A DNA stretch of 64,000 nt from Aplysia californica. Lineage: Eukaryota. Under the pieces are notes generated by a model that saw nothing but the letters and a program-made list of their open reading frames with translations, ran no database searches and was not told where the DNA came from. Below are positions 3,007 through 46,136 of this stretch, piece after piece (the first letter of the stretch is position 1; each line of letters starts with the position of its first letter). A program made the translations under genes and the position numbers. Location: the NCBI RefSeq assembly GCF_000002075.1, contig NW_004797286.1, forward strand, positions 2,226,053 through 2,290,052, given 5' to 3'.

Positions 3007-4823
3007 TATCATAATATAGTAAAATATATAGAAGATAAATTTAAAAAACCCGGAAAGGAGGATATGGGAGGGAAGTGCATGGCTGTTTGTAATGTGATTG
3101 TCTTATATAGGTGGCCGTTAGAGCAGGTTGGATTGTAATAACCTATTACATGTATTATATATGTACACGCAAATCCAATGTTGCAGGGATTTCGCTGTCC
3201 AGACAAGTAATAATTAGTGTGGTCTTATGCCATATACTAAGCTTATATCAGGCTATTATAAGTATGATACATAGAGTTACCCCTTTTTAAAATAGTGTAC
3301 ATCTATGGAATGAATAAATTCTTTAGTTTATACCATCTGAGCGTGAAGGCCATGTATTCCTACAATAAGCCAACATGGCAACTCGTACGGTATCTTTGAT
3401 GCTAGAATTCTGTGCTTTGATGTCATGAATTTGCTGACTTAGCCAGTTCCTCCTCCGCGTAGTCAATAGTTTTTAGAGCTTCCTACGTATTTTCTGTAGT
3501 ATTTAGAAAAGCTTATATCATTTTGTCTTATTATTGATTAAAAATACAAGTGTTTTAAAGACAATACATTAAATACTAACCTAACGGTAAGTATGAAAAA
3601 AATATGATTTTTGACATTATTTCTGTGTCTGTCGCCAACTTGGCAAGGGCTAAATTTGGGAAAATATCCGACTACAAACAGCAATTTTAAAGATCGAAAC
3701 ATCTTGAGAAACTGTTACATTTCGGAAAGGAGCGGCGAATAAGCAAATAAAGACAAATTATTTTTAAAAAAAATTAAAAACAACGTTACACTACTATAGG
3801 TTAGGTTGTTTTCATATTATACTACAATTAAAGAATATTTGACTAGCTTTGGTGCAATCATTAAAAGTCATTAAAACTCAATCGTTTATGAGAATAGGGT
3901 CTTGCTCTATACACGAACCAGCTTAGAATTTCTAAATGCTGTAAATTAACCGACAGTAAAACTACCTATTAATGTTATAATTTAAAGTTACTAGTGAGAC
4001 AAACAGACATAATTAAAATTAAATATTTTGGTGGGATTTTTTGTGGGAATGAATTCAAAAATTAATACAGGTCCTTGGCTGATCACAAAGGAAAACTTTC
4101 CAGAAAAGAAGAATCCCATGGTTGGAGCAAATACACTTATATTAATAAGAAGAAAGCGGTGAAAATACGATTTATTTTTTACAGTATAATTCTTTTTGCT
4201 TCAAGAATGCAGCCCACTTAATTACTTATTTTTCATTTAGACCCCACAGAGACGGAAAAGCCAAGGTAGCCTAAGCCTAGCAAAGACAGTACATAACTAG
4301 ACTCTTTGGGCCTAGGCTGTTAAAAAAATATCGATAAAAATCTCACAAACGTTTATACTCGATTACTATATTCGTACTTAAATTTATGGCGGACATTTTA
4401 AATGTAAACAAACAATCGTTGAGTCGCTAAGCCCAAGAGAGAGAAAACTTTCTTGTAAGTGTTTAACATTTGAATTATGAATAAATTTAGTTTTTCGTGG
4501 AGGGGTGGAGTCTTTCAAGATCTTTCTCTAGAATTCTGTTACCCTCACTACAGCTGTTGTTGCAGTGTGAGTGAGTGCTTGACTGTCTAAACTCAGTTGA
4601 GTAGAATCTAACTGTACCCCCTATTGAATTGACCTTATTGAGGCTACTGCTGTACAACCAACCAACTATGGAGATTCTCACATTTTAAATTTTTAGTGTC
4701 CCCAGTCCAGTTGATCGGGTCAGCAGGAGTCGTCTTAGGGCAAATTAGGGTCTTGTTAGTTCTAGTCAGTTTAGTAGTATCTAGACCTAGAAGTCAGTTG
4801 CAGACTCCTTGTTGTCAAAAGAA

Positions 4824-5609
4824 GGCCACCTCTATTCTCACCCGGAGTGAGAATAGTGCAGGCGAGTCTTTTGGCTATTCTCACCCGGTGCGCGTTCACC
4901 GTTATAGCCTAGATCTAGGCCAACAAATTTTGCTTTTACCCTAAACCACAGAATTCTACACTGTATAACAGAAAAATTGTAGAATTCAGTGCCGTGAACA
5001 AATGTTCCATTACAACTGTAGCCTACTACTAAAAGCGTACAATTTTGTCTGTGTGGGCAGTGGAGAGAGAGAGAGGAGTAGCGCGAGAACTTCCGCTCAA
5101 AACAAAATGGCGACCCGCGTAGTTCGGCTCGATTCGAAAAGTTAAATAGATCTAGCCGTAGCATCTTTGTAGACAACCAAATTAATATACTTTTGTGTTT
5201 TAACATAATTTTTTAACTTTGTTTTGGTCAATAAAAAATCAATTTGATCGTCCACACCGATAGAATGATAGACAGTATTCAGAAAGAGACCGAGAGAGAG
5301 GGGAGGAGTAGATCTTGCAAGAACTTTCGGGCAAAACAAAATGGCGACCCGTGTAGTTCGGCTCGATTCGAACAGTGAAATAGCCATAGCAACTTTGAAG
5401 ATCAAATTAGCTTACTTTTGTGCTATAACGTAATTTTTTCTTGGCTTTTATCAATTTGATCATCCACACCGATAGACAGTGTATTCCGAAATGAGGAAAA
5501 GCAGGTCTTGTTTCGCACGGGGTGAGAATAGCCTACGCTGGCAAGTCTCACCCGGGGTGAGAGGTAGATCGTTTTTCTATTCTCACCCCGGATGAGAATA
5601 GCCACTTCC
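4824..5609. mobile_element. Non-autonomous DNA transposon with 9-bp TSD (Mutator/MULE-like), copy A
   Basis: TSD TCAAAAGAA (4815-4823 and 5610-5618); GG..CC termini; subterminal palindromes CTATTCTCACC(C)GGGGTGAGAATAG; reverse-oriented near-identical copy at 45525-46369. Confidence 0.85.
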
Positions 5610-5621
5610 TCAAAAGAAACG

Positions 5622-6784
5622 GAGCTTTTTAGATCTAAATCTAGATCTAGATCTAGTTCCCACCCCGCCATGGGCCATTGTTCGCGGGTTTTGGCCCCCC
5701 AAGAGTAGGGGGTTTTAGGGGGGCTTGCCCCCTTGACCTACTAGATATATCTAGATCTAGATCTATCCTAGAAAAATAAGGTAGGGGGTTTCATTCGGCT
5801 AGACTGGCAGTCTTAAGTACGGCTAGACTTGCAGTCTAGCCGTACTTATTAGATTCATATGATGGCTAGACTCACCATTTACAAAAAATAGGCCTACTGA
5901 ATTGTAAATATACATTTTTAGTGTGCAGTACCTAAAGTATTTGTATTTTCTTGAGACGAAACCAGGTGCATGTATTTTAAACCTCCTGTTTTCTAATGTT
6001 AGTAGGGCCTAGTATAAGTACGGCTAGACTGGCAGTCTAGCCGTACTTAATATTGATGGCTGAATTGTAAATGAAATTTTTAGTTTGCAATGCCTAAAGT
6101 ATTTGTATTTCAGACAAAACCAAAAGGTGCCTTACTGACTTGCATGTATTTGAACCTGAATAATTACTAGATCTAGATCTAATGAGACCTGTGTACTTAA
6201 CAGGCTTGAGTCGATAGGGCCAAACCTAGATCTAGATCTAAGTACGGCTAGACTAGCGGTCTAGCCGTACTTAAGTACAGCTAGACTCTCAGTCTAGGCT
6301 GTACTGCTAGCCACTTCGTACCATAATTTGATGTTTTGCAGTTGTTAGATTTGTTATAGAGTAGCCTATATCTTAGCTTGCCGCGCATCAAACGTATATC
6401 TAGATCTAGCTAGATATCTAGACTAGACCTCTAGAATCTAGGGTGCTTTTTTGGTAGATCTCGATCTAGTTCCCACCCCCCTTATTTGAGCCTGACCTAG
6501 ATCTAGATCTATACGTCTGATTCGCGTCGAGATAAGATATCAAACCTAACAACTGTAAAACATGAAATTGTTGTAAAATTCAGGGAGGCATGCCCCCCTG
6601 AAAGTGATTCTAGGTCAGGGGGGCTTGCCCTACTCTTGGGGGCTAAACCTGTGAATAACAATTGCGGGGTGGGAACTACCGAAAAAGCTCTGAATCTAAA
6701 GATCTAGATCTAAATCTAGATCTAGATTTTCTAGATAGATCCTGAGGCTCAAATAAGGGGGGTGGGAACTACCGAAAAAGGACC
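5622..6784. mobile_element. Second 9-bp-TSD (MULE-like) element with nested insertions
   Basis: TSD AAAGAAACG (5613-5621 and 6785-6793); termini GAGCTTTTT..TAGTTCCCACCCC / GGGGTGGGAACTACCGAAAAAGGACC; contains a reversed short copy of itself (about 6442-6690) and a block of GTACGGCTAGACT-N3-AGTCTAGCCGTAC palindromes (about 5790-6310). Confidence 0.7.
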
Positions 6785-6978
6785 AAAGAAACGGCCCTTC
6801 GGCAGATTGGAAGGATTTATTCTCAGCAAAACAGGTTTGAAAAATAAGAAATGTGATGACGAAGGTGGCCCTACAGATTCCCTAAACTAGATTCTAGATC
6901 TCTCTTATAAAAAAGGAAGGACATCCATAAAGAGCGACCACCCCCCAACAAACACTACAAAAAGAAGAAGATGAAGAG

Positions 6979-7090: not shown

Positions 7091-8178
7091 CCCCTCTGTT
7101 CTACTCTGTCTCAGTGGTTGCTTGTTACGGAAGTCCTCCCATAAAAAATTGTAAATAAATTGACAATCTCAGGTTTTTGCCCCAAGATCAAGCCAAGAGG
7201 ATGATGAGTCATTAGATCCAGATGTAGAAATATTAGCTCTTGCTTGTCCTGCGTCTGTGCTGAGATACGAATCTTAGCAACCGATAACGTCGGACGTTCT
7301 GGGCAGTCCGCTGGGGTCACTCAGTGTGTAGGCCTACTGTTGGTGTACGTACAGCGTGCCCGCCTGGAACCTGGAAACGTGTGTTTTCGCCATGAATAGA
7401 CCAACCGCGGGAGTTGTGTGTTAATCAATGATGAAAATAACGCTGTCTTTCATATATATTTCTATTTATAAAGTGTTACAAACACATGAATAACCCCCTC
7501 TCTTAAGCTAAGACATTACGAGTAGTTACGACCATTCGAATAACCTTTCTAGACACTCTTGGTGTTATGAATGACCTGGGGTTCGAAAGGGGATTATCTA
7601 TAGACTATAGAGGTCGGTTTCCGAACGTTTTGCACTCAAATTGTTCTTCGTACCTGTGTAATGGTATTAGCTTATTTTTTATCAGGTATTATCATGTCAT
7701 ACAAAATAAGCTCATTTGACTCCCCTGGGGCAGTGCCACTGACTTTAGTTAGTGTCTTTAGACTATTTCCAAAAGGGGGACATTTCTCGTTCAAGCACAG
7801 TAGAATTGATTTTTGTAAATGGGGTGATTCATCATGTCACGCTCATATAACTGTGCCTGATCTGCAACAGGGAACTGCTGCTTTTTCTTTCCTAATCCTC
7901 ATGTACTATTGTCATTTCTTCTACTTCTTTTATATTTTGTCACTCTTGTGACCCGCTATTTCCTGGGTGCCTTGATAGTCGAAGCAGACCTTGTGCTGTT
8001 AAAGCTAGAGAGGTGAGCAGAGTAAGTCTGATTCCCACCCTTTGGCGCTCATATATATATATGACCTAATGCAGTTGCGAGCACCGTAAATCCCAACTCA
8101 TTTGAAAGATTTTGAATAGAAAAATGGAAATCTTGTTTCCTGACTATCCTTTCGAGCTCCTCATGTCTAAGTTGGTCA

Positions 8179-8707: not shown

Positions 8708-9785
8708 TAAGTTGGTCAATTTGTTCTATAATTTCATTGGACGAACATCTTGAGCTAACAACTTGGTGTGTTTTGAATGAGGCTGAGACTTATGCCTCGG
8801 TTACGAACCAACGTAAGCGGTTCTAGAAGAAGGCCACAAGAAATGCACACAAACTCAAGCAGACTGATGCACACGCACTTGAGCTGCGTGAATGCGGATC
8901 GGACACGGGACCCGAATTGAAGGGGGGATGATGCTCGGCACGCATATGCTGAGCCAGGGGCTAGACTGACGCGGGACCAGAACGCAGGCGAGGTGCCGAA
9001 ATAGGCTTATCGGGTGACATAAACCAGACTCCCGCAGGACGAGGGTTAAAATTAGGCCTAGATTTAGATCTAGATTCTAGATCTAGTAGATCAAGTTTTT
9101 ATTACTATTATTACATGAAAGCTATTATAATAGGCCTACTTATTACATTACAGCGAGCACCTTGCACAACTTTCGGTTAAATGTAGAACGACACATCTTC
9201 CTGATTGGCTGCTAATTTTAGTAATGTCATGTCATCACTCTCTAGGATACCCACAGACTATTTTAAGGAAGCCATGGAGGTACCGCATGAAACGATGTGT
9301 TTTCGGTATGTAATAACATTTCAGAATTCCTAGTACTTGGGCATGGTGGATGGAAGATCGCTTAGATAGACTAGATCGTTGATGCTCAGAACAGTAAGAT
9401 TAAGAACGCTGATGCTTGAAGTTGAAACACGGTAAACTCAAAGACAATAAACCGCTCGAAAACTGCCGTAATGACGCCGGAGGATTATCCCCAAACTCCT
9501 CCAGCATGCTTACTTCATCACTACGTTAAAAAAAACCTACAAAACAACAAATATTATAGTTTATTGGACAAATTGTTGGTCAGTCGCGAGGAGGAGGGAG
9601 GTGAAGAGGAAAAAAAAACCTTCCGGGACCGGGATTCGGTCCCACGCTCATATGACTTCAAACGCAGACATGCTGACGCTGTCCATTCGTCCATTAGAAC
9701 TTCCAACAGCGAAAGGTAGATTAAGCTTGATATACATAGACACTTCCATCTTTAGTGCCGTGCGGTTGGCTATAATTTAGATGTA

Positions 9786-10100
9786 GTCACGTGATCGGAG
9801 GGGTATCCTGGTCTGACGTCAAACAAGATGGCCGCCTTACCTAAAAATAGTTTGCGTCGTTCTACGTTTAATCACATGTCCTAGCACACCTCTGTGATTG
9901 GCCCAAATTTAGATCTAGATCTAGATGACATATATATATTTCCACCATCTATTTTTGTTGTCTTCCAGGGTTTCCCTTCCCGGTTGACTAGATCTAGATC
10001 TCGCCATGGCGAACCCGCTTAGCGTGCGATGGGCTACGTCAAAGGTCTCATCAGCGACTGCTTGGGCTGTGTGCGCACGTGTGTGTTTTAAAATTGAATT
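9786..10100 (+). promoter_or_regulatory. Probable NCAPG promoter region
   Basis: CpG-rich; E-box GTCACGTG 9786-9793, CRE TGACGTCA 9814-9821, YY1-like CAAGATGGCCGCC 9824-9836, reverse CCAAT 9897-9901, CHR-like TTTAAA 10087-10092; 200-500 bp upstream of the ATG exon. Confidence 0.55.
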
Positions 10101-10293: not shown

Positions 10294-10389
10294 ATGACCG
10301 TTGAAGCCCTGAGGGACATATTTATTGAATGTCAAGATTCACAGAATCAGCACCAGCTGGTTAAAGCCTTTAAAAAACTTTACAATGAA
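10294..10389 (+). CDS. NCAPG: NCAPG coding exon 1 (MTVEALRDIF...KKLYNE)
   Basis: Acceptor ccccag ending at 10261, ATG 10294, donor GTGAGT. Confidence 0.85.
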
Positions 10390-13300
10390 GTGAGTGGTTG
10401 TGATTGGTCTTTAACTACTTTAAGATTTTGGGAATATTGTACGTTATAAAGTTGGATTTTAAAATATTTTGTTAGGAAACGTATTTGGTGCAAATTATAT
10501 TCTTGAAGAAAAAAATTATACACAGTCAAAATTGTCTAATAGAAACGGCCACCCATTGTCGAGGAGAAAAGTGGCTGTCTTAGATAAAGACAAATGGATG
10601 TCTTACACAGTGTCATGCGAGGGGGGAACTGGGATGTGGTAGTTTGTTCTGGTGATTATCTTTTATACAGGTGGCCGTTAGAACTGGTTCGACTGTATTT
10701 TGAATTGCAGTGAACTGAAGGGTGGGGGGCTCAGCTCACAATGTTAGCTTTGAATTTTCACACATTATATTATAGCCAACTGAAGGAATGTGTCTTGTAC
10801 ATCTGCAACTTTAAAATGAACTCCCACATACTTGATAAGAAGCATTGTTCCTTGGGTTTGGGTCCCTTTTTATTTTTTTTCAATTGAAAGGTTTGGGTCC
10901 CTATTTTTTTTTCAATTGAAAAATATTCTGACATGTCATGATGTAAAAATATTGTTTTTTCTTCTCTTACAATACACCACAGGTGCCCTTTGACACATTT
11001 TGGCCGGAATTTCTATACCTGGTGAAGCACCCTTTGACAGTATATGACAGACAACCAGCTGTAGAGAAAACAATTGAGTTCTTGTCCAAAGCTGTTACTG
11101 AGCTGGCAATTGCACATGCCAACACAACCGGTCAATCTGCAAAGAAAAAGAAAGATGACAAAGAAGCACAGAAAGAGGATGATGCTTCGGATGAAGAGGA
11201 AGGCGATATGCATCCCCTGCTGATGAATTTTTTTGAGTTTCTCCTTGATGTAAGTCCTATGCATCTGTCTTTATGGAAAATATTTCTTCCTTAAAATATT
11301 TCTGTCTTAGCGAAAGCCAGATTATGCCAGCCTCCATAAATGCCCTGTGAATTTGAGAATAAAATCACTTAGACCCAGGAATTTAAGGAAATCTCCAGAA
11401 TGACCGGAGAAAGCCCAGAGAAAATGAGTTTTGTTCTACAAACAGCGAAAACCTAAGCTGATATGGTAAAGAGGTCCAGTTTTTTGGTGGCATTTGTAAT
11501 TTATTTGACTTTCCCCGTTCTGTGAATAACTTTTGTGTTAATAAGCGGAAATGGCAGATGTGAGATGTCATTAAAAACTCAGATAAATCAAGGCTGTGCA
11601 ATCTCTATTTGAATAATTATGTTCTAATTTTTATTGCCTTACCACCCAGAATCCTCAAATTATGGCCTGATAACTGTCATAGTTATGATACGCGAATGAT
11701 CAATGTTCGTTGTTATTGTGAAAATTAGTTTGATTAAGTCTACTTTTGCACTATTTTCTTCTCAAGTTGTGTACACCCTTCATTCATAGTTTTAGAAATT
11801 CATGTACTTTTGATGGGAGAAGAAATCTGTTTTAAGCATCTGCTCAAAGAAATGTGCTGTTATTGGCTCTTCACATTGAAGAGTAAGTCTTTTCCAGGGG
11901 TCCTCATTGTAATGTCTTCTTCCTGGAGATCATGTACCCCAGTGTCTACCTATGTGTTAGAATTGTTAGCTCTCTGAACTCTCTATCTTTCTGCAGGTTC
12001 ACTGTGCAAAGGATAAAGGCATAAGATTCAGAGTGTGCCAGTTGGTCACCCGATTGCTTCAGAATCTTGGTGAAGGAGCCAAAATTGATGACAGCTTGTA
12101 TGTCAGGATTTATCGTTGTATGGTGGAGCGCCTGAGAGACAAATTTCCTCTTGTCCGAGTCCATGCAGTTTTAGCTCTTACAAGACTTCAGGATCCATCA
12201 GATGAAAACTGTCCAATCACCAAAGGTTTTTATCTGTGTTTTTGATTTTGTTTAAGTCAAAGTGTTGAAATTCCTTTGAAGATTGATCTTGTTACTTTTA
12301 CCAACTTTTCAATGTTGTTTAGTTATTGGAAATACAGTGAAAAAAGAGCAATGATTTGTCGCCTTTCGCGTTAACAAATTGCTTGCAACTTGGAAGATCA
12401 GGTCTGATAGCATGCTGTAAGTGTACAGCCTGTGTTATAGCTCCTTCAACGTAAGATTTATCAATGGTGTCCCATGTTGAGAAATTGGTGTCTTAGTGCT
12501 TAGACCAACAAACTTATGATCCACATGGCAATTCAAAAGCATCCCTGGTGGAAATATCAGCTACAATTTTTTTATTTTTTTTACATCAGTCTTGCTCATA
12601 GTTTTCAAGTCTTTCATTTGGAGGATCAAGTATGGTTAAGTAGCGACTATGGCAATGAACTAGTGGAAAACTATCTTCATTTATATAAATGTTTTCCACT
12701 TCATCTGCAGCCTATATCATTTTGATGACAAGAGATCCAAATGTAGAAGTGAGAAGAATCATCCTCACTTGCATTGCGCCATCCACATTCTCTCTTCCTG
12801 CCATCATTGGACGCACCCGTGATGTCAAGGACACTGTCCGGCGGACTGCTTACACTGTCATTGCTGAGAAGATTCCTCTGAGGGCTTTGAGAATCGAACA
12901 GAGAATTAGACTCTTGCAAGATGGTCTCAATGACAGATCAGGTAATGTCCAAAGTGATACTGTATGTAATGTCTCTTAATTGAGCTAAAAGACAACCAGC
13001 ACCCATGTGCTATTAGATTCATTATTTTGAGAACGGTTCTTTGTGTTTGTTTATTATTGTTAAGGATTTTGTAGTGTTTGACACGTAAACTAATATTTCA
13101 AGCTTCTTTCATTGTAAATTTGATTACACACACTTTAATAATAATAATAAATTTCAGCTTTACTAAGAAAGTGCTCAATGCACATGACAATTATTCAAAG
13201 AACACATAGAGGGTTCCAATAGTGGTCCTGTCTCTNNNNNNNNNNNNNNNNNNNNNNNNNNNNNNNNNNNNNNNNNNNNNNNNNNNNNNNNNNNNNNNNN

Positions 13301-16300
13301 NNNNNNNNNNNNNNNNNNNNNNNNNNNNNNNNNNNNNNNNNNNNNNNNNNNNNNNNNNNNNNNNNNNNNNNNNNNNNNNNNNNNNNNNNNNNNNNNNNTC
13401 ACTCACAGCATAGGGATGAACAGAAACACCTCTGGCTTGGGCGAAATACAGGTCTAGGTCTGGACCTAAATCCACTGAATTTGAAGTTGAATCCTCGCCA
13501 TTACCACTGTCAATGCTTTCACTACTACAACCACTACTGTACTCGTAGTCTTGATCAAGGTCTCCTGTATCACACAGGTTTTCAAACATTACTCGCCTGG
13601 TAATTTGGCCAATGAGACGTGGCTCTCTTTCATCCAAGTAGAAAAAGTGGGTGGTTGGCGGGTGTTCTGGTGTGGTTTGCTTCTTCTTTCCTATCAAACA
13701 TCTATCGTACTTTTCTCCCCTTCTTCTTTTTTATGTTTGTTTCTCTCTTGTAACACCTCTAATCTTCTGGCGCTCATATGACCTTATGCAGTTGCGAGCG
13801 CAGTAAAACTCTCTACTAAAACTAAAAACAAGTAGAGAAAGTACTACAGTCCAACCTCATGGAGTTCACTGTTTGTAGAGACCATTGCCTGCACCAAGTG
13901 CAGAGTTTAGAGCTGATTGGCTGACTATTTTTAACGCATAATTATCTGATGAGAGGTTCTAGTAGACAGGGAATCCGACATAATTAATGGTTTCTTTTTC
14001 AGATGTCTGTTTTGGAGCAGACATTGACGATCTTGGTACCCCATTCCTTCCTGCTGTCTTGTCTTCATGATCAGCTCAGTTTTTCTCTTTTTTGTTATTC
14101 GTTGTAAAGTTGTTCAGGCCATCTGTGTATGTTGTTCTTTGTTTTCCTCTGCTCTTTCCCTCTATCTTTCCACACAACAGCAATTTCTCTTGTCCAATTG
14201 ATTTCAAAGAATCTCAATTGTCTTTTTCTTATTGTTTTGATTATTGATCTTTCACAACCTGCCATTTGGAGCACTTCTCTATTTGTTTTCCTCTCTGTCA
14301 ATGAGATTCTAAGTATTAAATACCACATTTCAGCAGCCTCCAGTCTTCTCTCTATGTCCTTGTTTTGAGTCCAGCTCTTGCATCCATATAAAATGACTGA
14401 CCATGCATATGCTTTCAGGATTATTTTTTGTTCACTGTTATGTTTCTGTTTGAGAGGATGGGTGTCATCTTGATGAAAGTTTCTCTAGATATTGCAATCC
14501 TCTTTATATATATAGATCTATATATTTATTTTTTTAAAATTTTTTTTTTTGCATCTGGTGTAATTGTGCAACCAAGGTGTGTAAAACTTGACCTGTTTTA
14601 TTCTTTCATTCTTACATGTGATGTTGCATACTGGGATGTCAGCACTTTTTTAGATCACCACACATTTCATTTTCTTAATGTTCAGTGGTAGGCCCTTCTC
14701 TTCTCTTTTCTCTGTCACTCTAGTTAGAATCTCCCGGAGCTTAGACTCAGAATCAGCTATTAAGGGTTTGCATTGTGTATTCCAGGTAAACCAAGAAAAC
14801 GGCTGACAGGGGTTTTAAAAAATTTCATTCATGACTTTTTAAAATTTTTATTTGATCCTTCAATTTTGTAGTGTAAATTCTCTACGAGTAAAGTATGTAA
14901 AGCTAGAAAAATAATTGCATTTGTCTGCTTTTATTTTATGGTATTACTTATTACATTGAAATGGGTGGCACATAATGTTGTTTTTAATTTTGAAAGTCTT
15001 TATTCCTACCTCCACATGCATTATGTTGTATTATGTTCTTCTAACTTTGTGGGTGGTTGGCAGGTGCTCTAGTGTGGTTTGCTCCTTCTATCCTATCAAG
15101 TCTCTATCATCTTTATCTCTCCTCCTTTTTGCTCTTACTCTCTTGTAACACCTCTAATCTTCGGCACTGATATGACTTAATTATGTTGCAAGTGCCGTAA
15201 AGCACTTACAAAAACAAGTTCTTCTCTTTGATGCACAGAGATGGTTAAAGCTGCTTGCTCCAACAAAATGCTTCAAGCCTGGCTTTGTGCCAGTGAGGGC
15301 AATGTCCTGGATTTACTGACCAGACTAGATGTTCAGAGCTCTTCAAAGACTTGTGAATCAGCACTCAAGATTCTGTTCAAGAACTCAAGTGTTTTTAAAG
15401 TTATTGAACTGTTTACCATCATTGATGAGAAGTAAGGTTTTCCATTTGCCGTCTTGTTTTCTTCCCAGTATGTTGTTCTTAAAGTGATAGAAGAAACAGT
15501 CTGAATTCATAAATAATAATAATAATAATAGATAGCATTTGTATAGCGCATATCCCCGCTCAACAGCAGGCTCTATGCACTTTACACTATATTATTACCC
15601 CAGCAGACCATAGAACACTCCGAAACATTCTCAGCTTCCCGGGAAGCATACAGTGCAAGCAGCTGATTAAGCGCTCAAACACTAACAAACTGACAAGATC
15701 TTTCGCTGTCTATAGCCGGGTACCCATTCACACCTGGGTGAAGTGAGGAAAATTCGTGTAAAGTGCCTTTCCCAAGGACACAACGTCGGGTCCCTGACGG
15801 GATTCGAACCCACGACCATACGGTTGCGAGTCCGAGAGCCTAACCAGTAGGCCACCGACGCCACCATCTTGAAGGACATCTCAGATTTCTAAAATCTTCC
15901 AGACACTTGTATTTTATTTCTTATCTGTGTACTTGCTTAAAATATAATGGTCCTTTATGACTCTCGATAGAAGCTAGTCTTCAAAAATTGTCAGAAATTT
16001 TGTTTTTATGGCTATGTGGGCTTTGTAGTGAGGACAACTCCTTATCTCCGGCAAGCAGTCCCACTGGCTTGCGATCGAAACAGCTGTGCATTTATTTACG
16101 ACTTCTATGTCAGATTAGTTTTCTGCAGTTGCCAAAGACAGGTTCCAGTAAAAGATGACAATATGAAATAGGTTCATTTATTTTAATTTTATGACCAATT
16201 TAATATGCTCGTATATGTCACTTTTAGATTTCACATTAAAAAAGGGCCCTGGCATCATGGGCTTACCCTCCTCGGAGATAAAGAGTTTAAGAATTACTAA

Positions 16301-19300
16301 TTGGTTTTTGCTGTTTGAATTACGGGAATATTTTGCTTTCGTGTCTCTCAGAGCTCTTGTTCCAGAGGAAAAACTGACGTGTGAAAGTGCCTTCTATTGG
16401 CGCAACGTGGTGCAGTATGTTCAGCAGGCTGGAAATGAGTATGATGAACAACTGGACAAAGTCAGACCCAACTGTTTGGATTTTTGTGATTATCTGGAAG
16501 GGTATGCTTCTCTGATTGCTGTACAATTTTTTCTTGCACTCGTTTCATTTCAAAATTAAATTTTTATATCAAGAATGTAAAGAGATAGGTTTAATCCTCA
16601 TTCCAGGTGAATGTTTGAGAAGCGAAGGTCGAGAAACATTGAGATTTAAAAAGAGAAGGCTGATTTTTCTTGGCGATGATTCTATTTATTTCAGACTTCT
16701 TGGTTCAATCTGGAAATTAATTTTGTTTGCTTAATCCGCTATAGGACAGAGAAGAAAAACGCATTACCAACTTCAACTGGGGTAAGGGTGGAGGAGGGTT
16801 GATGGAAGAAAGCCAAATCCTCATGGAATTGTATTGGCTATGAACTTTCTGATTTCAGAGTAACAAAACAGCTGATGAACTGCACAGACCTTGACAAAAT
16901 GCTCGACATAGAATTCATGATTCAGCAACTTTTACAGATCCTCCTGTGCATGGATCTGTCTGATCAAGCAAGCAGGTGTGTAAGAAATGATTGAACCTTT
17001 TTTACTTGCTTTGCAATTGAATGTTTGAACTTTCCAATTTATATTATCTCAAAGTTGTAGTGTTAGAAATTGAGTAAAGAAGTAAAGATCGGTCTGCCCT
17101 GTGTACGAAAGCCCAAGTATGCCTTGCTGTCCTAAAAAAATGTATAACTGAGTTTTAGACAAAATTATGTGATTGGTATTTTCAGAAAGGTGATTGCAAA
17201 CTCTTGGTGACATTGATTATTTATTTTGTAGAATGTGAAGTTATATGAAAAGGTGGAGGAGATAAAGCACGTTTTCTTGAAAATGTACAGTTACATTTTG
17301 TCATTTAGCACATTTAGTAAATAACGTTATGAAGAACATTGTTCTCTCACAACATAATAGCTTTCTTAAAATCTTTTGTTGATATCAACTATGACTATTT
17401 GTTGCCGCACCATTGAGTCCTCTCTAATTTTCATTTGAATTGTTATTGTGTGATAGATTTTTTGGTCTTTGTACACATGCAATTGGCTTTAAACTCAATA
17501 GTTTGCTTCTTTATACTTACAATTGGCTTTACACTTTGAAGACAGTTACCTCTCGCCATTGCTGTTTATCTCGCTTCTTTCTCTGTTCTTTCAGTCTGTT
17601 GTGTTACTTTTTCCCCGCACTATACTGTCATCTTTGTGCTTTGAATCATCTTGCCATCTGGTTTTGTACACATACATGATGCATTTTTTTGTCAGAGCTT
17701 TAAATGTGACAATAATCATTCTTTTAGTTGTCCCAACTTATTGTTGGTGGGACACTTGACTGCTGTGGGTTCCTGATTTTCAAATTTCTGCAAGGATTTC
17801 TCAGAACTGAAGTCTTCTCTGCCTCACTCTGTGCTACTTTGAAGTTTACATTGTGTGGACAGGGGTGTAATACTCTGATCAAGAGTCTCAGATTCCCTGG
17901 ATTGTTCTACCTGGAAGCCATTTTTTTTCTATTATTTTCATAATTTTCATTAAAGTCGGTAAGAACAGTTATTGTGGGTGGTTGGCGGGTGCTCTGGTGT
18001 GGTTTGCTTCTTCTTCCCTATCAAACATCTATCGTCCTTATCTCCCCTTCTTCTTTTTTATGTTTGTTACTCTCTTGTAGCACCTCTAATCTTCTAGCGC
18101 TCATATGACCTTATGCAGTTGCGAACGCCGTAAAACCTCTACTAAAGCTAAAAAAAACGTTATTATTCTCAATATTTGTTTCTGTTTAACCCCATATCAA
18201 CAGTCAATTAACTGTCTTTTTGTTTGCAGATTAAAATTAATAAATTTTGTGTTATTTTCACAAAATGCACTTTGTGTCCCTGGTTCTAATAATCAGCCAT
18301 ATTTCACCACAGGAAAAGGGCAGAGAAACTTTTGAGGAATCTGTTGCTGTCAGACCATGTGGGTTCTTCTCTCGTGGATCACATCTTACCTTGCCTTGGC
18401 CAGCTCCATACAGACACAGAGGAACTGGTCAACGTTGTAGCTGAGATCATCTCTGAGATCAGGGAGCCCATCACATCTGTCGAGAAAGAAATCTCAAAAG
18501 CTGACCGCAGAGATTTAGATAAAAAGGTTGTTCTCTGGCTGTGATACTGTTTCTGGATAAAATGTTAATGTCTTTTTTTTTTTAATTTCTAAAAAAACTT
18601 TGGTTTACTAACAGTTTGAACCTGTAGTAATTACTATTTTCTCAATTATGATAACATCAAAACGAAAAGACATTCTTGACCAAACGATGGTTTTGTTAAC
18701 CTCTCGAGTGATCGTATGTTAAGGAGAACAAAAAAAACCTTAATCCTCTAAGATGGAAAGCTTTAATTTATTATGTGCTGATATGTTCCTTGCTCTTTGG
18801 CGTAGCAAAGAGTAAATTATAGTCACAATCAGCAAGTGCCAGATGTGCGACAGACATCCAAGATCATGGTTCTCCTTTATTCCTTTTCTCAGATGCTCTT
18901 AAAAAAAAGCTATATTATCCTGATTTTTTCCCCTATCACCCATCTGTTTAGGCTGTCCAAGTTCATTGTTCTGGGTCTTCTCTGCCTCGTTTGCCTTCAA
19001 TTTTGTTAGTGAGAGCATAATCCTCTAAGAATACAAATAGCTCCAGTTATCTCTGCTTTTTTATTTGTAACATTTTTGTTTTACTTTTTAAGTACGTACT
19101 GTGTATAAAGATGTGATGGTGCTGTTTATACTGTAATTGTTTTGTTTTTCTTTCACATTATCAGATTGCTGGTATCCGAGTGAAGCTGAACCAGCTGAGG
19201 GAAGAACTCGGGGAGTGTATTGAGAAGCAGGATTTCGAGAGGGCAGCTCAACTAAAAACTGACATCTCTAACCTAGATGCTGAACGATCCTCTCTATTGG

Positions 19301-22300
19301 AAGAGACAGAACCCAAACTGGAGGAAGTACGCACCCAAAGGGTAAGCTGTTTTCATTCACTATAAGGATTTGGCTTAGATATATGTCTTATTACTTTGTG
19401 TATGTGTGTGTGGTGAAACACAAAACCAGTGTGCCAGCATCTGGACAATGAAGATTTATCTTATCTTATCTATCTTATTACTCTATTTAAGTTTGTTGGG
19501 TTTGTTTTTTTCTCACTATATTACATATTTAAGTTTGATTTAGCTTTTTTGAAAATCATTGTCCAGACATTATTACATAAAAAGCCTATTGTTTCCCTTG
19601 GAAAAAACTTGTTCCTGCCTTGGTGATATGTTGTATTTCAGTGACAACTTTTCTTTAGGATGGCAAGTTACAGCAGTTAGTGACTTATTGATTATAATTT
19701 ATAAATGCAGTCCTGTGCTTTGTACCGCCATCGTACATTCTGTACTTGTGTACTTTACTTCCTGTATATGTTCAACTACCAGTCTAAACGGTGTCAGTCG
19801 AGTTCTGATATACAATTACCTTTTTATGAAAAGATGTTTTGCACCATCTAAAGAAATGCTCATCAGTACTAGTTTAGTTAAATGGCACCCAGCCTTTTGA
19901 AGAAAGAAGGGTTGCAAATGAAGCAGATAGAAGTAGCCTCAACCTTTCTTTACAAATTGATTTATTGATTTTCCTAATTTTTGTCCACTGAATTTTTTTA
20001 CAGGATGACCCTCTCACAATGTTGAAATGCATTACCGTTGTTTGTGAGCTGCTGACTTCACCCAAGATCAAAACATTGACATCTACTCTCCAGATGCTTA
20101 TGGAAGCTCAGGTAAGAGTTTTGGTGGAACTGACCTTTTAGACTGGGGTTGTTTTCACTCTTCAAACACTGATGTTGCTGTCTATTATTAGTGATGTAGG
20201 TCTTCTTTCTTTCACAAAATTAGATGTTATTTAACGCCAGTACTATCTGTGCTTACTTTCAAAGTCACCTTCGCCCCTACAGAATGTTTCTTGCAATTGT
20301 TTTATATTTGTAAATGCAACATTTTAACAATCTTTTACCTAGGTGTTGCCAGGTGTTAACATTGTAACAATCTTTTAACTAGGTGTTACCAGGAATGACC
20401 AACGAAGAAGCTGAAGTGAGGAATGCTGCTGTCAAGGCAATTGGTCTTTGCTGTCTCATTAAGAAAGATGTCATCATGCAGCATTTGCCTCTTCTGTTGC
20501 AGGTATAGTATTCTCATGCAGACCTACCAACTGCAGTCTAGCACGCACATAGTAAAATTGCCAGGACCCGGAAATCTTCTCACTATGTAGATGTTTTTTA
20601 ATTTAAAGAACATGTAAGAACATATGGGGACCTGGAATTCTGTTTGTTATTTGCATGCAAGATTGTATTTTAAAAAATCTGATTCCCCAAACTTTTGCCT
20701 CTTCTGTCGAATTTCAAGTTGGATTTATTTTATGAAAATGCTTTTCCAGTATTTCTCTTATACAAGGGCATGGTTTTTATAGCTGACTTTTGAGCTGTTT
20801 TCCATCTCTTCTTAGTTGACATTTGAATTCTAATGATAACTGGACTTGTTCGGGTGGTTTGAAGACTCTAGACTGGTGGGTCTTCTTTTCTTTCCCTCTG
20901 TTGTTTCTGTCTGTGTGTCTTACTTTTTCCCTCTGTTTCTTTTTACTCTAACAAATCTGTGCTTTCTTGAATTTGCGTATTCAGTTGAGTTCAGCTACCT
21001 TAATATTGGGAGATTCCTATTGTTGTTGGGGGTAGGGGATTGTGAAAAGACTGAGTGGAGTGAGACAATGGGACAATTTTCCTTTCTTTTCTTTTTTTAA
21101 CTCTTCGGGGGTTGGCAGGTCTGCTTGATATGGGCGTTGTTCGTTTTGTCTCTGTACACAAAGCACTTCTTGACTCTAACCCCATCAGGGATTTTGTAAT
21201 AATCTCTTCTTTTGAGCAATAAAGATCAGCTTTTGTGATTTGTCTACCCCAGTGGCAATCCAAAACCCATTAATTGTACGGTATTCCATTCCTTTTTCCC
21301 TTTGTGCTCCACTCTCATGAAACTTTTCAACCTGTACAAGTAACAATATCTATCACTGAACATTTTGGTTTGACACAAGCATAAATTTTAATTTCCATTA
21401 TAAGAAAATTTCAGTTACTGGCCTCTCCCAACATCACATTCAATGTTCTACACACTGGCCTGACACAAAAGTTGAAAACCTTCCTGGAGTTAGGCTTGTG
21501 TTCCAGACTCTAAAGTTGGATAGTGAGCATTCTTTTCTCAACTTTACGCCGTTGCTATTTTTATATCTTTTTCTGTTGTAATGTGACATCTCTTCTTTGT
21601 AATCAGGCCACCCAGATGGACACTCACCTTGTCAGAACTACTGCTATGCAGTGCATCTTTGACATTGTGCATGTGCATGGCTTGGACACCTTCAGTGATG
21701 AGGGGAATGCTTCCAGTCAGGAAACTAACAAGTCTTGTGCAGAGAGTGAAGCTGACCACACAAATGTCACTGACGCATCAGAGCTGGCTGACTCTACTGT
21801 CGGCTCTGTTAATGAAACTGCCGATGAGACAAAGGATGCAACTGCTGCCAGTGAAAAGACTGGGTGGAGTGAGACAGCCAGTAAAATCATTGCCATCCTA
21901 AGTGCATATTTAGATAATGAGGTATTAACTGTTCATTTGTGCTCATTTCATGTTATGACATGCATTTTATCAGAAAATGTTTCTGGAATCTCTTCTCTTT
22001 TTTTTGTACATACTTGCTCTGTGTATTACTATCTCGTAATATTTTCCTTGCTTCACAATGCGTTTTTCATCCAGTCTCTTCAACGATAGTGGAGGTGAAA
22101 AAATTTAACTTTAAAGGATGTTTTAATCATAGATTTTAGAGTTTCATTATATGCCTATCTATTACAAAATGAAATGGTTCGGGCAAAATAAGGAATAGTG
22201 GAAGTGTATATATATGTAAGTATAAACTTTTGTTTGTGAAGCAGTCTGAATGAGAATTTATGGTGGCATTCAACAGCACAGCTCAGAGATGTTTTGATTG

Positions 22301-25300
22301 GTTTTTTTTCTTGGGGTGAACATTTGGCAGTGTTGTGTGAGAGAAGGAAAAATTAAATGAAGAAAACCCTTTCTTTCTTTCTTTTTTTTTTTTTTGTTTT
22401 GTTTTTTTTGGTGTGTGTGTGTGTGAATATTTTACGATGCTTGCAACTGCATATATGGTCATATGGGCGTACTGGACACGTTAACAGTGCTTCCACTCTT
22501 CTGTATTTTTACGGAAATCCGTACTTTCTGCCAGTTCCGTATGGTTCCTCCATCATTATGAACTCCCTCCGTAAAAATATGCGACAGCATTGGACTGCCC
22601 AAATTCCGTACTCGCCTTCGTATTGTGTTGTATAAGTTACGGATATTTACGGTAATTCTCTCGGCAATAAGTTAATGTTTATAGAAACCTGCAAAATTGT
22701 TCATTTCCTTCAGTCGGCCATTATTCTGCTATGCCCCATGCATTCATTGCGGTGCGGTTGGTCGGCAGTTCATATTTTACATGCACATGAATCAAAATCT
22801 GGTGTACTTTTTGTGCCAATTTCCTCCTTTCTATCATTCACTCATTCCTTCTGTCTATCTTCGGATTGTTGCCGCGGCTGGAAAATTTGCGGGTTGATCA
22901 AGTAAATTGAGTTGTGATCTTAGACAGAAAGTTACTGTCAGAAAGAAACTTTTTTTGCAAATTTGTCTAGATCTAGAGACATTATCAATGTGAAAATTCT
23001 ACGGCACGTGAACGCGATAATATAAGGGCCGCGATGAAAGAAATATTATATGCTTATACGGGGTGCCACTAAGGATGGGATCCGGCTAATCGCCCGACTC
23101 GGTCGCCTCAAAAACAAACGCGTTTGTTTTCAGTTTCAGACGATGGAGTCGGGTGATCGGCCCGATCCAGCCGTAGGTAAAATCAAGAATAATTCGAAGT
23201 GGTGTTCCGAGGTTGTGACGGGTGACATTCAGACGTGAAAATTGAGGAAAAATTAGAGTTTATGCTGGGCAACTGTATTGTAAAGGAACATATCTATTCA
23301 TTATTCCCAAGTTTGCCTGCTATCAATGGTGCGATGACAAATTGATTGAATTATAGTACAATGAAATAAACATTGCCAGCAATGGAAAGATACGGTGTTG
23401 AAGAAATCAAACAAGACAAAATGTTGGTGAAAAAATAAATGTTATGGGCTGTAGGAAATCTCTTCAAATGCCATTTTTACCCCTCTAAAAGCACTAAATT
23501 TCAATTTCTTCGGGGGCTTTGCCCCCTGGACCCTGCTGGAGCAGCCCCCAGACCCCCAGCAGAACATTCCTTACTTTTAAGCTTCAGCTGGTGGAAGCAC
23601 TGCGTTAAGCATATTCAATTTGGTAGGAATTTAATTTTGCCTGGGTCGCTGCTGAAGTCTCCTCTTATCGATTTTAGGACTACCATAGGATCTTTAACGT
23701 ACAACTTACACTTCAAGATATTTTTGCTCTTGTCCAAAAAGGCTAGGTGTTAGATCTTACCTACCCTAAGATCAGGGGTGTGGCTGAAAAGCAGCAGAAA
23801 GAGTTAGGAGCCCAGAGAAGAGGGGGGGGGGGGCGAAATTGGACAAAAAGCAGACAACAGAACCATGATTAGAAAGCAGGGAGAGTGAAAGAAACATTTT
23901 TAGAGAAGAAAATTCTCTGTCACTGTCAGGTTTCGAACCCAGGACCTATTGTATGTGAGGCGAACTCTGAAAATGTTTAATGTGTCCAGCGCGCTCTTTT
24001 GACCTTTTGCAGTTGTGAGTGCCGTAAAACAATTACCAAAAAAAGAAAAGAACCAGTTTTCTCTTTGTGAATATTTCAGTCTGTCAATACTGTGTATATT
24101 TCAGAGTTTGTGAATACTCTCCGTATATTACATTGTAGATTTGTAGAGCCCATGGGTGGTTTCACTATTTTCATCTTCTTTCTGACAGAGTTCAGAGATT
24201 CGTAATGTGGCTGCGAAGGGGCTGGCCAAACTCCTGTTGTCTGGCAGAGTCATCTCCCCCAAGCTGGTGTCTCACCTGCTCCTGCTGTGGTACAACCCCA
24301 TGGTGGAGGAAGACGAGACGCTGCTCCAGTGTCTGGGCATTTTCTTCCCGCTGTTTGCCTTCAGCAGCAGGTGCGCAATGGGCAAGTGGGTCCCATGTAT
24401 TCAAAAGATGTTTCTTTATATTTAAAAAAAAATTTTTTTTTTTTAAAGGGGAGGGGAGGATGTCTTCTGCTTTAACGCTTTATCTCCAAGGGTGGTGAAC
24501 CCACTGTGCCAGGGCAATTTTTTGGTATGAAATCTAAAAGTGATATATACGTCACTAAATTGGTCGTAAAATCAAAACAACTGAACCTATTTTGATAGTT
24601 CTCCATCTAATGAATGAACTCCAGGTAAAAGAGACCTGTTTTCGCAAATTTGCAAAAAGTAGTTTGATGCTGAAGTCGTCCTAAAGGAAAGTGCACTGCA
24701 GCTTCCTGGAGATAAGGAATTAAGGCAGTTATATTCTTGGAGATGAGACGAATAGAAAAATATGCGTTGGTAAAAACAATTTTTGTGTCCACTTGTTCTT
24801 TTATGTCTCTTTCTGGTGTTTTGAGATAATTCATGATAACTTGATGCAGGGAAGATACAATTTTCAGGGTCATGTATCTTCTAAAAATTTCTAGTTTTGG
24901 AGTTGTTGATGTTGTCATGAATATAGACAAGATGGATTGTTGCAATACGCTTGGTCCAGGAGAACAATGTGTAAGAATGTGCGTGCATTAGTCCTGTATA
25001 CCAGCATTGTAGAATTTTCTTTTCAACAAGACTTTCTACAAAATATGGCTCATCATGTCCTTTTTTTTCTTCTTTTTTTGGGTGGAGGGGGGTCACCCAT
25101 TTCACTAAACTGAATGTTTTTTTAGGAAAGATGACATGGTGTGTCTTCTTATCTGTTTGCATACTTTCTAGATAAATCGTTATTGACTGGTCTGTTACTA
25201 TGATGTCATTGATGTTTGTTTCCCTCAGCACAAATCAGGAGGTTATAGAAGAGGCTTTCCTGCCCACTTTGAAGACTCTTCTTAAGGCACCATCCACATC

Positions 25301-28300
25301 TCCTCTGGCTGAGATAAACGAGGGCAATGTGTCCAACTTTCTGGTAGAACTCACTAATGCCCAGCACTTGGCCATTAACCAACAGTCTCAAGTGGAGCTG
25401 ACGGTATGGAGTTTCTAATATTTTTTTGTACTTGTTCTCATAAAATGATTTGTAAGGCTGGTTGCACTTTCAGTCATGTATGTCTGATGGCTCAAGAAAT
25501 CTCTTCTCATTGGTCCCGTAGCCAGTGTTCATATAATGACTGCTTTGCTGTCATCAGCCAACTCTGAGCATTTTGCTTCTTTTTAAAAGTCAGTAAAAAG
25601 AGCGATGTATTCAACAAGGGTAGCTATTTAAGTGGAGAACCTTTACACTAGCTCATCTTTATTCTCACACTTGCCGTTTCAAATTGGTTTTCCTGGGGCC
25701 CCACACAATAAGTTCCCTCCATGTCAATTGTTACTGTGACTCCTGGTTATGGTGTCTCGCACTGAACAAAATCTCAAATTATATTCCGCATACTAAATAC
25801 AAATTACTGTTTATTTATTTATTTATTTTTTTCCCTTGCCCGTTTATATGAGATTGACGCCATCTGATTAGTAGATGATAGTCCAATAGTGTATTACGGG
25901 CATACTTCGTATAACTAGTAACTGAAATAGCAGATAGAGATTCCAGGATTATAGATGTACGTCATTGATATGAGAGCGGTGATGATTTTAGATATAATGG
26001 CAGTGACGAGTGATGATGAGGGTTTGCGTTTAAGTAATGTTAGCGTTAGTCCTATCTTCCTCTGCTCCAATGAGTCACGAGGGATGTGGGCACCCTCTAT
26101 CCCATTCCAAATTACTGTTTAATTAATATAGATGCAGAAATGGCAATAGGCTTTGAGCAAAGACGTCAACTGAAAATATGTCTTTATGGTTCTTGGAGTC
26201 CAAATCTGCATTGACCTACCCTACAGGACAACCCTTGTCACGACAGCCTGGCTGTGAAGCTGTGCAATGAGGTGCTGTCCAAGCCAGACTCTTTCAACGT
26301 GAAGCTTTGGCTGAAGGTTCTCAACCAGCTGTTTCTCAGCACTGACAACATCATCTTGCTCAAGGATCTGTGTACCATGTGTGAGGACATGGCCATTGTG
26401 AGTTTTGCTTCACTTGAGGCCTTTACTTCAGGGATGTTGATCTTCTGAAATTTGTGTTGCAATTGCTATAAAACTCTTTGGAAAACTAAACTAAACTAAT
26501 CTTCTGTCAGTTTTATAAGGTAAACTGTAAGAGGTTATTTGCTATATAGACTGCAAGTATGCTCAAAATGGGAAGACAATAATTTGGAGGAGATGTGTAT
26601 GTCATATTGAATATACCCTCCCGGATATTCCTAGCATCTGCGTTTGTCGCGGCCACGAATCGCGGTCTCGATTTTTGGCATTTTTTGGTCCACGAATCAC
26701 AGCCGTGATTTTTGTATTTTTCCAACAAATAAAAACTTCGCCGGGAAGAAAAAATAATTTAAAAACTACAACAAAGACGGGGAATAACATTCGGGGGGGG
26801 GGGGGGAAAGAAAAGAAATCTAACCTCTTTAGATCTACTTTTAGAAAGAAAGTTTATTTTCACTTTCGCTTCACTTCGTCTCTTTCTCACTTGTTAACAC
26901 CACGTTGATTTATAATTTTCATGTGAAGAATATAAGTAGGCTACATTACATACTATTTTGCTGTTGCTATTTCATGTTTCCCTCTTTGTTGTGTTTTAAT
27001 TTGTTGGTGTGTTAATTTTTTTTCTTCTTGCTTTTGTTCTGATGTGTTGTTTTTCTATTTTTTGTGTATATAGTATAGCGTAATAATGTTCTTCCTACTT
27101 TTTTTTTCTTCTAATTATGTGTTATGTTGGAGCGTGTCTCCACCAAAAACCGAATACTGACACGGGCAGGCCCCTTGTGTGTGATTCCGTAATTTACATG
27201 TAATATCCTGTACTTTTTCTTGAATTATACAGGTTTAGGGTTAAAACGGCCAATCTATGAATTGGGTTGACACTCGCCCTTATTTGCTAATTTTTGTGGT
27301 TGTTTATTAATTTGCTGTTCTAATTTTGATTTCATTCTGTTTTGAAACTTTTATTTTTCACGTTTTTACACTCTCTGTGGCTACAAATGGTATTCTGGAT
27401 GCTTAAAACAGCACAAGAAATTCTAGTGTTTTAGATTAAGTTACCTCTATCAACATATTGCTATATTATGTCGTCACGAAGAGTAGAAAGCTTGAAAATG
27501 AATGGCAACTTTTGTGGAAAAAATGGCAACGAACGCAGATGTTAGATATTCAGTGCATTGGAAGCCCTCTGAAAGGTAGCATATAAACGTACATTTTTTT
27601 TTGTTTTAATGAAATGATAACTTTGAGTTAAAAAATTTAACTTCTTTTCCCCAGCATGGAATTTGAAACATAGTAATGCTGAGATATAGTTACGTTTATG
27701 GTGCAAAAACATTGGCATTATATAACTATTATTGATCCCTTACTTATTTTGGAGGAAAAGTCACACATTTAAAGGTTCAACGTGTTACTCTGATTCGTTA
27801 AATCAAACTATGGGCAAGGCTGTTTGAAAACGCCTGAATTCTGTTACATTGACAAAAAAGTACCACTTTTTATAGAGCAAAAACTTGACATGATACGAAA
27901 AAACTAATGTCATTTCTGGCATCAGCTATCCCAAATAAGCTTTGAACAATACTTAAACTTAATCCAGCAAAATGTGTGTTGAAAAGTGTGATCTTCCAAG
28001 GAAGTCCATGATTTCTAGGGGGAGAAAAATATTCCCATATGAATTTCCACAACCCAGTTTGGGATTTTAGGGATTTTCTGTCCACTGATGTGGAAATTGT
28101 GTTAAAGAAATGGAGGGCTTTCATACAATTTGATGTTGCAGTACAGTGCATTTGGCTGCTTTTGGTGGTAATGTGAATTATGCCTTGGGTTTTGAAAAGA
28201 ATGGGGGGGGGGATGTTTATTGTTAACTTGGGATTACGTTTTTATTAATTTATTAACTTTCATATGTTAGTTTTATTTTGTATATTTATTGTGTGGTCCT

Positions 28301-33027: not shown

Positions 33028-33112
<85 letters not shown>

Positions 33113-45147: not shown

Positions 45148-45524
45148 GTGAGTGGCAATTATATCATGGCTATTGAAGCTAGGTCTATATTTGAACCTGC
45201 CAAAGCGTCTGGTTTGAATCCACACCATTCTAGCTTTTGTACTGTTATTGTCTGCTTTCTTGTCTGTGGGGAGCAGGAATAAAAAAATCTGACGCATTGC
45301 CTGGCCATTGCTGCTATGATGATGAGTAGGCCTAACAAAACTCCACAGAGTTCAAAGGCAGAGGAGAAACTGTTGCTGTTATTCGACCGGGATAAGCGAG
45401 GAGCATTAGCTTGTGTTTTCTTGTTGGGACATTGATTGAGATCGAGATCTTTATATTTCTAGCTCAAGTGCCTTCTCTCAAACAGCCTAGATCTAGATCT
45501 AGATCTAGATCTAGATTTCTAGAT

Positions 45525-46082
45525 GGAAGTGGCTATTCTCATCCGGGGTGAGAATAGAAAAACGATCTAGAATATAGATCTACCTCTCACCCCGGGTGAG
45601 ACTTGCCAGCGTAGGCTATTCTCACCCGGTGCGAAACAAGACCCGCTTTTCCTCATTTTGGAATACTGTCTATCGGTGTGGAGGATCAAATTGATAAAAG
45701 CCAAGAAAAAATTACATTATAGCACAAAAGTAAGCTAATTTGATCGTCTTCAAAGATGCTATGGCTATTTCACTGTTCGAATCGAGCCGAACTACGTGGG
45801 TCGCCATTTTGTTTTGCCAGGAAGTTCTCACAAGATCTACTCCTCCCCTCTCTCTCTCTCTCTGTCTCTTTCTGAATACTGTCTATCGGTGTGGACGATC
45901 AAATTGACCAAAACAAAGTTAAAAAATGGTGTTAAAACACAAAAGTAAATTAATTTGATTGTCTACAAAGATGCTACGGCTATTTAACTTTTCGAATCGA
46001 GCCGAACTACGCGGGTTGCCATTTTGTTTTGACGGGAAGTTCTCGCGCTACTCCTCTCTCTCTCTCTTTCTCTCTCTCTCTT

Positions 46083-46136
<54 letters not shown>

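Follow-up and report, generated by a model that had tools for sequence, protein, structure and literature searches.

Excision footprints of IS630-Tc1-mariner transposons consist of a duplicated TA target that encloses terminal bases of both element ends. Cuts with a 2-bp stagger are described for Tc1, Tc3 and IS630, and a 3-bp footprint for Sleeping Beauty (bioRxiv 10.1101/659086). The Tc1 product taCATGta (TACATGTA) has been counted among "rare footprints", and an abundant Phytophthora motif was held not to derive from it (PMC3520976). In the pogo superfamily, Passer (DD35D) uses a TA target, leaves footprints of 0-4 bp and displays a measured bias toward transcription start sites and active promoters (PMC9976928); its N-terminus is of the BrkDBD/Tc5 type (PMC7386202). 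A TA target site duplication (TSD) is given for some Fot and most Fot-like pogo elements, and the hosts named in the available text are fungi, protists and algae, with no animals (Gao et al. 2020, PMC7386202). Here we describe a 64,000-nt stretch of the Aplysia californica genome (contig NW_004797286.1, positions 2,226,053 to 2,290,052, hereafter the window, whose positions are used throughout), in which the words TA-GATC-TA (TAGATCTA) and TA-GGCC-TA (TAGGCCTA) very probably represent excision footprints, or scars, of resident pogo-type cut-and-paste transposons.

As in the footprints of IS630-Tc1-mariner elements, the duplicated TA encloses terminal bases of both ends in a 2+2 geometry. Unlike the Tc1 product TA-CA-TG-TA, the Aplysia scars would stem from ends that start with G, which give GATC or GGCC, and there are about 1.8 x 10^5 marks per genome. 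A second difference from known footprints is that the GATC mark recreates the target favoured by its donor and iterates into (TAGATC)n runs. Footprints as such are already known; the genome-scale GATC and GGCC scars, together with the runs built from them, are a well-supported new form of a known process. A literature search, whose coverage lay outside Repbase, most subscription journals and supplements, returned nothing on genome-wide TAGATCTA/TAGGCCTA scars, on microsatellites built from scars or on pogo elements with a PHD finger.

The two words are strongly over-represented. In a 320-kb comparison set that excludes the window and is made up of two 100-kb flanks and 20 arbitrarily picked 10-kb stretches, TAGATCTA is found 60 times against 4.8 expected from an order-2 Markov model, and TAGGCCTA 23 times against 1.9, i.e., each about 12-fold above expectation. 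In the same set TACATGTA reaches 3.5-fold (31 against 8.8), and the remaining palindromic TA-xxxx-TA words, with the exception of TATATATA, at most 3-fold. Words with mixed fillers are about 3-fold over expectation, compared with 12-fold for the symmetric TAGATCTA and TAGGCCTA. An exact count over the whole genome gives 177,062 occurrences of TAGATCTA, and the GGCC words are estimated at 50-64 thousand. The window holds 36 TAGATCTA and 10 TAGGCCTA. Of the former, 21 lie at 4.3-10.1 kb (3.6/kb) and 12 at 43.5-51.3 kb (1.5/kb), whereas the 23.5-kb body of the NCAPG gene has three (0.13/kb). Thus the concentration outside the NCAPG body, which had been noticed by a sequence-only reading of the window, is borne out by the counts.

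The same reading had described 6-bp insertions at TA in copies of repeats, and the four allele pairs concerned, at 5147-5154, 46858-46865, 45568-45582 and 6455-6468, are indeed present. The longer alleles are derived rather than ancestral, because they are the minority state among paralogous copies. The single GATC scar at 5147..5154, in an A|TA|G context, is carried by 2 of 135 spanning alignments, and the GGCC scar in copy C at 46858..46865 by 1 of 85; at 45575 the longer allele is found in none of 70. A further derived GGCC scar, at 7329..7336 in a G|TA|C context, is absent from all four spanning copies. The host of the 5147 scar, copy A, is a miniature inverted-repeat transposable element (MITE), and copies of its family have a median distance of 2.8% from their consensus. 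The GATC gain at this site is common to copy A and copy L016, and a tree of 57 copies forces at least two separate gains; a third copy with the gain, L003, falls inside a supported clade that is otherwise without it. A scar was gained at this single TA by 3 of about 58 MITE copies. The host repeats are not themselves the donors, as these GG..CC-ended MITEs have target duplications of 8-9 bp and record the scars.

Donor elements were sought with the PF03184 profile, which gave 123 matches, 40 of which were retrieved together with 10 kb of surrounding DNA. Ten full-length elements of 3.0-5.4 kb with TA on both sides were recovered, nine with GA..TC ends and one with GG..CC ends. TA-duplicating elements with both kinds of termini, which had been anticipated from the window alone, thus exist in the genome. 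The GA-type ends read GA(G/A)T..A(C/T)TC and the GG-type ends GGGT..ACCC. The open reading frames (ORFs) of the donors encode a DDE_1 domain, with HTH_psq and/or HTH_Tnp_Tc5 in four of eight, the other four being N-truncated or unmatched; the catalytic triad is DD35D in seven of the eight ORFs measured and DD36D in one. A DDE_1 domain with a DDxD triad, terminal inverted repeats (TIRs) and a TA TSD, the features that define the pogo superfamily, are all found. Judged from sequence, the donors bear the Fot/Fot-like signature of pogo, i.e., DD35D with HTH_psq and/or HTH_Tnp_Tc5. They share with Fot and Fot-like elements the DDE_1 core, DD35D, the combination of HTH_psq with HTH_Tnp_Tc5, short TIRs, a length of 3-5.4 kb and the TA TSD, but differ from the published description in their animal host and in a PHD finger, a domain of which there is no mention in the main text of PMC7386202. 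Passer, with its target AAGTACTT and BrkDBD/Tc5 N-terminus, differs from the donors, which have a CTAG target, psq/Tc5 domains and in part a PHD finger. The excision model proposed from the sequence had been patterned on Tc1; its 2+2 geometry, as in TA-CA-TG-TA, stands, but the donors are of pogo type and not Tc1 proper.

One donor family has copies that are 96-98% identical, and recent activity is therefore indicated. Genome-wide, a scar followed by GAGT and a base other than C occurs at 756 sites, compared with 214 for a reversed control. Inspection by eye of the first 100 of these junctions placed 30 in eight recurring end families, and there are therefore more donor families than those resolved. 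A blind scan of 1.1 Mb for TA-flanked inverted repeats found no GA- or GG-ended element, because the donors are too rare; they were found solely through PF03184. The stretch that joins the DDE core to the C-terminus contains long proline-rich tandem repeats in the transposase ORFs of L291, L292, L305, L324 and L294.

Other transposons were considered as donors and rejected. ISL2EU has an AT TSD and AGA..TCT ends. Harbinger has a TWA TSD, and the ends of the other PF13359 matches are not readable. The ends found for Tc1/IS630 (DDE_3) elements, in the 50 matches examined out of 150 listed, read AAC or CAC. A TA|AAC-ended Tc1 family is represented by L192-L220, and an intact IS630-like DDE_3 ORF of 420 aa, with tandem subterminal repeats, lies at L241:4552-5811. 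Elements with TA|CAC and TA|CAG ends (L088:5857-6060, L061:672-875, window 32517-33262, and L316) are candidate donors of the third scar class, TACATGTA. A young ISL2EU element (L081:1560-6180 and L082, with 99% identical copies; derivative at L171:384-1251) encodes THAP-DDE_Tnp_4 and YqaJ ORFs, has the AT TSD and AGA..TCT ends, and shares the MITE nests as landing places. The C-terminus of its YqaJ ORF shows a cysteine pattern that by eye is PHD-like, without a Pfam PHD match.

The target preference of the donors links them to the scars. TA is present at 34 of 35 distinct GA-type ends, and C precedes it at 30 of these 34, compared with 17% of TAs in random DNA. At the GG-type ends TA is present in 8 of 8 and is preceded by C in two (Fisher p=0.0009 against the GA type). 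Isolated scars in non-repeat DNA agree with these preferences, the favoured sites being C|TA|G for GATC (30/142, 4% background), G|TA|C along with A|TA|C for GGCC (36/77, 15% background), and A|TA|C along with A|TA|T for CATG. The match between scar flanks and donor targets is clear for GA ends and GATC scars, and for the GG type is based on 8 ends. A target consisting of TAG only, whether as a Zator-like 3-bp TSD or through templating by a flanking G, was rejected, as GGCC words have C before or G after in only 23% and the TTG versions are without enrichment. Telomerase-type addition of G residues was likewise rejected, as GATC cannot result from it.

In a GATC scar the second TA is preceded by C and the first TA is followed by G, so that the scar regenerates the preferred C|TA|G target; the junctions of the element likewise contain CTAG. 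This preference, recreated by the scar itself, sharpens the earlier proposal that repeated insertion and excision built the runs, and it is rather likely that (TAGATC)n runs grow by feedback, with GA-ended elements landing again on their own scars. An alternative, which is unlikely but deserves weight, is that only the single scars are footprints and the runs arise mainly by polymerase slippage and by copying inside MITEs, donors being found in runs merely since both gather in one set of accessible nests. Among the GATC gains in MITE copies, several repeat a unit already present, perfectly and in tandem, as slippage would produce. Copying is also evident: of 25 motifs at 4.3-10.1 kb, 7 represent the MITE family majority and were brought in, not made in place (6 others are specific to their locus, and for 12 there are fewer than three spanning paralogues). 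However, GGCC and CATG hexamers could slip too, and arrays of two or more units make up 1/107 for GGCC and 0/56 for CATG, compared with 130/572 for GATC. The runs are moreover not uniform, with GAATC (35), GATTC (35) and GATATC (19) units interspersed with 299 GATC. As to the donors, a GATC, GAATC or GATTC unit adjoins 21 of the 34 GA-type ends; in the nests 17% of CTA already adjoin a scar, a point that slippage can call upon, but 21/34 is well over this background and over the 4% of random CTA. The 3+2 products GAGTC and GACTC number 8 in the runs, against 70 GAATC/GATTC, and a 2-nt remnant with an added A therefore fits the data.

The following course of events is proposed. Donors with GAGT..ACTC or GGGT..ACCC ends would insert and duplicate TA, and the transposase cuts would lie two bases inward from each 5′ end, in the manner published for Tc1 and Tc3. 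From the published 2-bp staggered cuts, TA-GA-TC-TA and TA-GG-CC-TA are predicted once both remnants are filled in. End-joining would retain both 2-nt remnants, GA+TC or GG+CC, between the duplicated TAs; an added A or T would give GAATC/GATTC, and the loss of one base GGC/GCC. Every excision by a GA-ended element would create new preferred CTAG targets, and cycles of landing and leaving would lengthen (TAGATC)n, with a probable contribution from slippage. GGCC and CATG scars would be without feedback and hence single. The traffic would centre on CpG-rich nests of transposable elements, likely in open germline chromatin. Taken as a whole, the explanation by pogo footprints, self-feeding growth of runs and traffic in CpG-rich nests is considered probable.

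The nature of the fillers bears on a second alternative, that the host breaks and repairs its DNA without transposons, by breaks with a 2-nt stagger at TA, for which meiotic breaks offer an example, with untemplated or snap-back bases then being added. When 0.9 Mb was piled up all against all, 239 derived insertions emerged, most of them ordinary duplications; most of the other insertions in repeats are of the duplication-plus-filler kind typical of end-joining, and the donors are low in copy number, as break and repair would have it. The scar-type fillers in this pile-up are untemplated and palindromic: GATC, GGCC, CATG, GAATC/GATTC, GATATC and GGC/GCC. A pattern behind one MITE anchor was also searched genome-wide, with each of the four possible fillers G[AG][TC]C permitted. 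The 20 rows obtained, which may share descent, comprise 9 GATC and 11 GGCC and no mixed filler (0/20). Sixteen rows could be assigned to a TA, the following base being taken from the consensus: C|TA|C holds 4 GATC and 7 GGCC rows, C|TA|A holds 3 GATC rows, G|TA|C holds 2 GGCC rows, and T|TA|C holds none. The filler is independent of its flanks, as GATC follows a TAGC parent and GGCC a CTAC parent. Symmetric fillers indicate a template with two like ends. Because the fillers are fixed, symmetric and independent of flanks, and equal the tips of resident elements in letters and in site preference, host break and repair is improbable. That selection acts on the words as protein-binding sites near promoters is very improbable: they do form palindromes, CpG-rich DNA is enriched in them, and a similar abundant Phytophthora octamer was interpreted as a factor site (PMC3520976), but they appear as fresh insertions in young MITE copies, at many different TAs and in irregular runs.

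Scar density follows base composition and repeat context. Measured in 2-kb windows outside the Aplysia window, TAGATCTA occurs at 0.06/kb where the observed/expected ratio of CpG is <0.45 and at 0.24/kb where it is >=0.65, a 4-fold difference (p=0.006 on runs). In non-repeat DNA, scars reach 2.05/kb around MITE nests and 0.18/kb in random stretches, a difference of about 11-fold; the density is 1.44/kb at GA-ended donor loci and 0.48/kb at loci with a YY1 motif, a motif used as a promoter proxy. The view that the scars record open chromatin near promoters is therefore carried in part: the CpG gradient and the co-location with MITE nests agree with it, but the YY1 proxy is weak. Targeting of promoters is slightly favoured.

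A possible means of such targeting is a PHD finger. Pfam PHD matches are found at the C-terminus of five donor-type ORFs (L291, L292, L305, L294 and L309), and the nearest solved chains, with modest E values of 1e-4 to 4e-3, are those of Alfin-like, Pygopus, TAF3 and BPTF. The fingers of these proteins read methylated H3K4, and the C-terminal PHD is tentatively predicted from these matches to tether the donor transposases to H3K4-methylated nucleosomes. IS630 prefers TA within CTAG, and the PHD finger of RAG2 reads H3K4me3; the CTAG target of the one and the possibly PHD-guided recombination of the other are analogies to the donors only. It is conceivable, although somewhat short of an even chance, that a clade of PHD-finger pogo elements reads active germline promoter chromatin, lands at C|TA|G, leaves behind the scar that suits it best as a target, and in this manner builds a microsatellite of about 180,000 units.

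Several points weigh against the explanation by pogo footprints. Excision was deduced and not seen, as no single site was found in all three states (empty, filled and scarred), and no donor end was found within the window. Donors are few, 189 DDE_1 candidates for 177,062 words, so that a high turnover is needed, and a single GG-ended family (8 ends) has to account for the estimated GGCC words. It should also be noted that the donor loci were chosen by transposase score after the pogo lead, and the sample is thus non-random. Two GA-ended families (4 ends) are not preceded by C, and 7 of the 9 assignable GGCC rows are at C|TA|C, so that the site preferences overlap. Only about 13 single and 4 compound insertions, classified by eye, among the 239 derived ones are of scar type. 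TA|AAC-ended Tc1 elements are abundant (1159 DDE_3 candidates), yet TA-AAC-TA is only 1.5-fold enriched, which is unexplained. With regard to chromatin, GGCC shows no CpG gradient, and scar clusters occur in 4/30 YY1-motif windows vs 3/106 (Fisher p=0.04, Mann-Whitney p=0.29). As to turnover, a calculation that assumes a mutation rate of 3-10 x 10^-9 indicates that the upkeep of 177,000 eight-letter words calls for some 0.004-0.014 new scars in each haploid genome and generation; the required rate, about 10^-5 to 10^-4 per element if the elements number a few hundred, is plausible.

In the window, read depth shows that 4.8-10.1 kb is a repeat nest throughout. Copy A, at 4822..5608 (+), belongs to a 782-bp family with GG..CC ends and is flanked by a 9-bp TSD at 4813-4821 and 5609-5617. 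An exact 9-bp TSD is present in 20 of 26 copies of this family, for which there were 2039 first-look candidates, and by its structure (G..C ends, 9-bp TSD) it is a MULE-type MITE. The TAGATCTA at 4910..4917 was inherited through the MITE consensus and is carried by 53 of 77 spanning alignments. A (TAGATC)n run at 5630..5656 stands in place of TA near the terminus of a second MITE family, and a short TAGATC run is at 5749..5765. The TAGATC units at 6165..6240, in a palindromic MITE family, are mostly inherited, but an extra unit at 6227 is specific to this locus, as none of seven other copies has it. A second host family, at about 6442..6790, has GG..CC ends and an 8-bp TSD in 16 of 24 full copies; it holds the compound scar of 6455-6468, with runs at 6497-6511 and 6700-6727. 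Host MITE copy B, at 45525..46369 (-), carries the compound scar at 45568-45582. It was inserted at a (TAGATC)5 run (45487..45516), of which its 9-bp TSD forms part. Degenerate telomere-like CCCTAA/TTAGGG arrays at 6979-7087 and 50888-50930 belong to a repeat family also found in L103 and L125.

With respect to genes, NCAPG (condensin subunit G) occupies 10297..33800 (+), its 3′ limit being approximate, and its body is CpG-depleted and poor in scars. A scar cluster lies upstream of its first coding exon at 9053..9996 (9053, 9065-9086, 9131, 9910-9926 and 9989). The gene is confirmed by three Cnd3 (PF12719) matches in a Pfam scan that covered 111 of the 588 candidate ORFs of the window. Two exons at 52073..53813 (+) are the first of a gene or fragment that is kinesin-like, and a second promoter is presumed there. 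These kinesin heavy chain-like exons have a weak Pfam Kinesin match (E=0.0085) and almost no RNA reads; no further kinesin exon could be recognised within the window, and at 42.5-55.5 kb the reads of three RNA runs yielded no exon joints of use. They may be a fragment or a gene with long introns. The two promoters beside which the scars had been placed earlier are thus presumptive: NCAPG is a confirmed gene, but the second gene is only a kinesin-like fragment. The window also contains a reverse transcriptase/RNase H fragment of a long terminal repeat retrotransposon (914-1234) and an ORF with a weak DUF7869 match that is possibly transposon-derived (38060-38518).

Footprints, known so far from single excisions, appear in Aplysia to contribute a major share of small insertions. 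A microsatellite that a transposon builds by targeting its own scar again would represent a new route to tandem repeats, and lineage-specific TA-xxxx-TA words, which are often taken for factor sites, would be explained. Past rates of transposition, and perhaps germline accessibility, would then be readable from sequence. If PHD-finger pogo elements indeed read promoter chromatin and land on their own scars, the element would manufacture its own safe landing pad, and the map of scars would be a sequence-only record of open germline chromatin and of past jumps. Intact transposases that prefer CTAG and bear a PHD finger make this choice of target directly testable.

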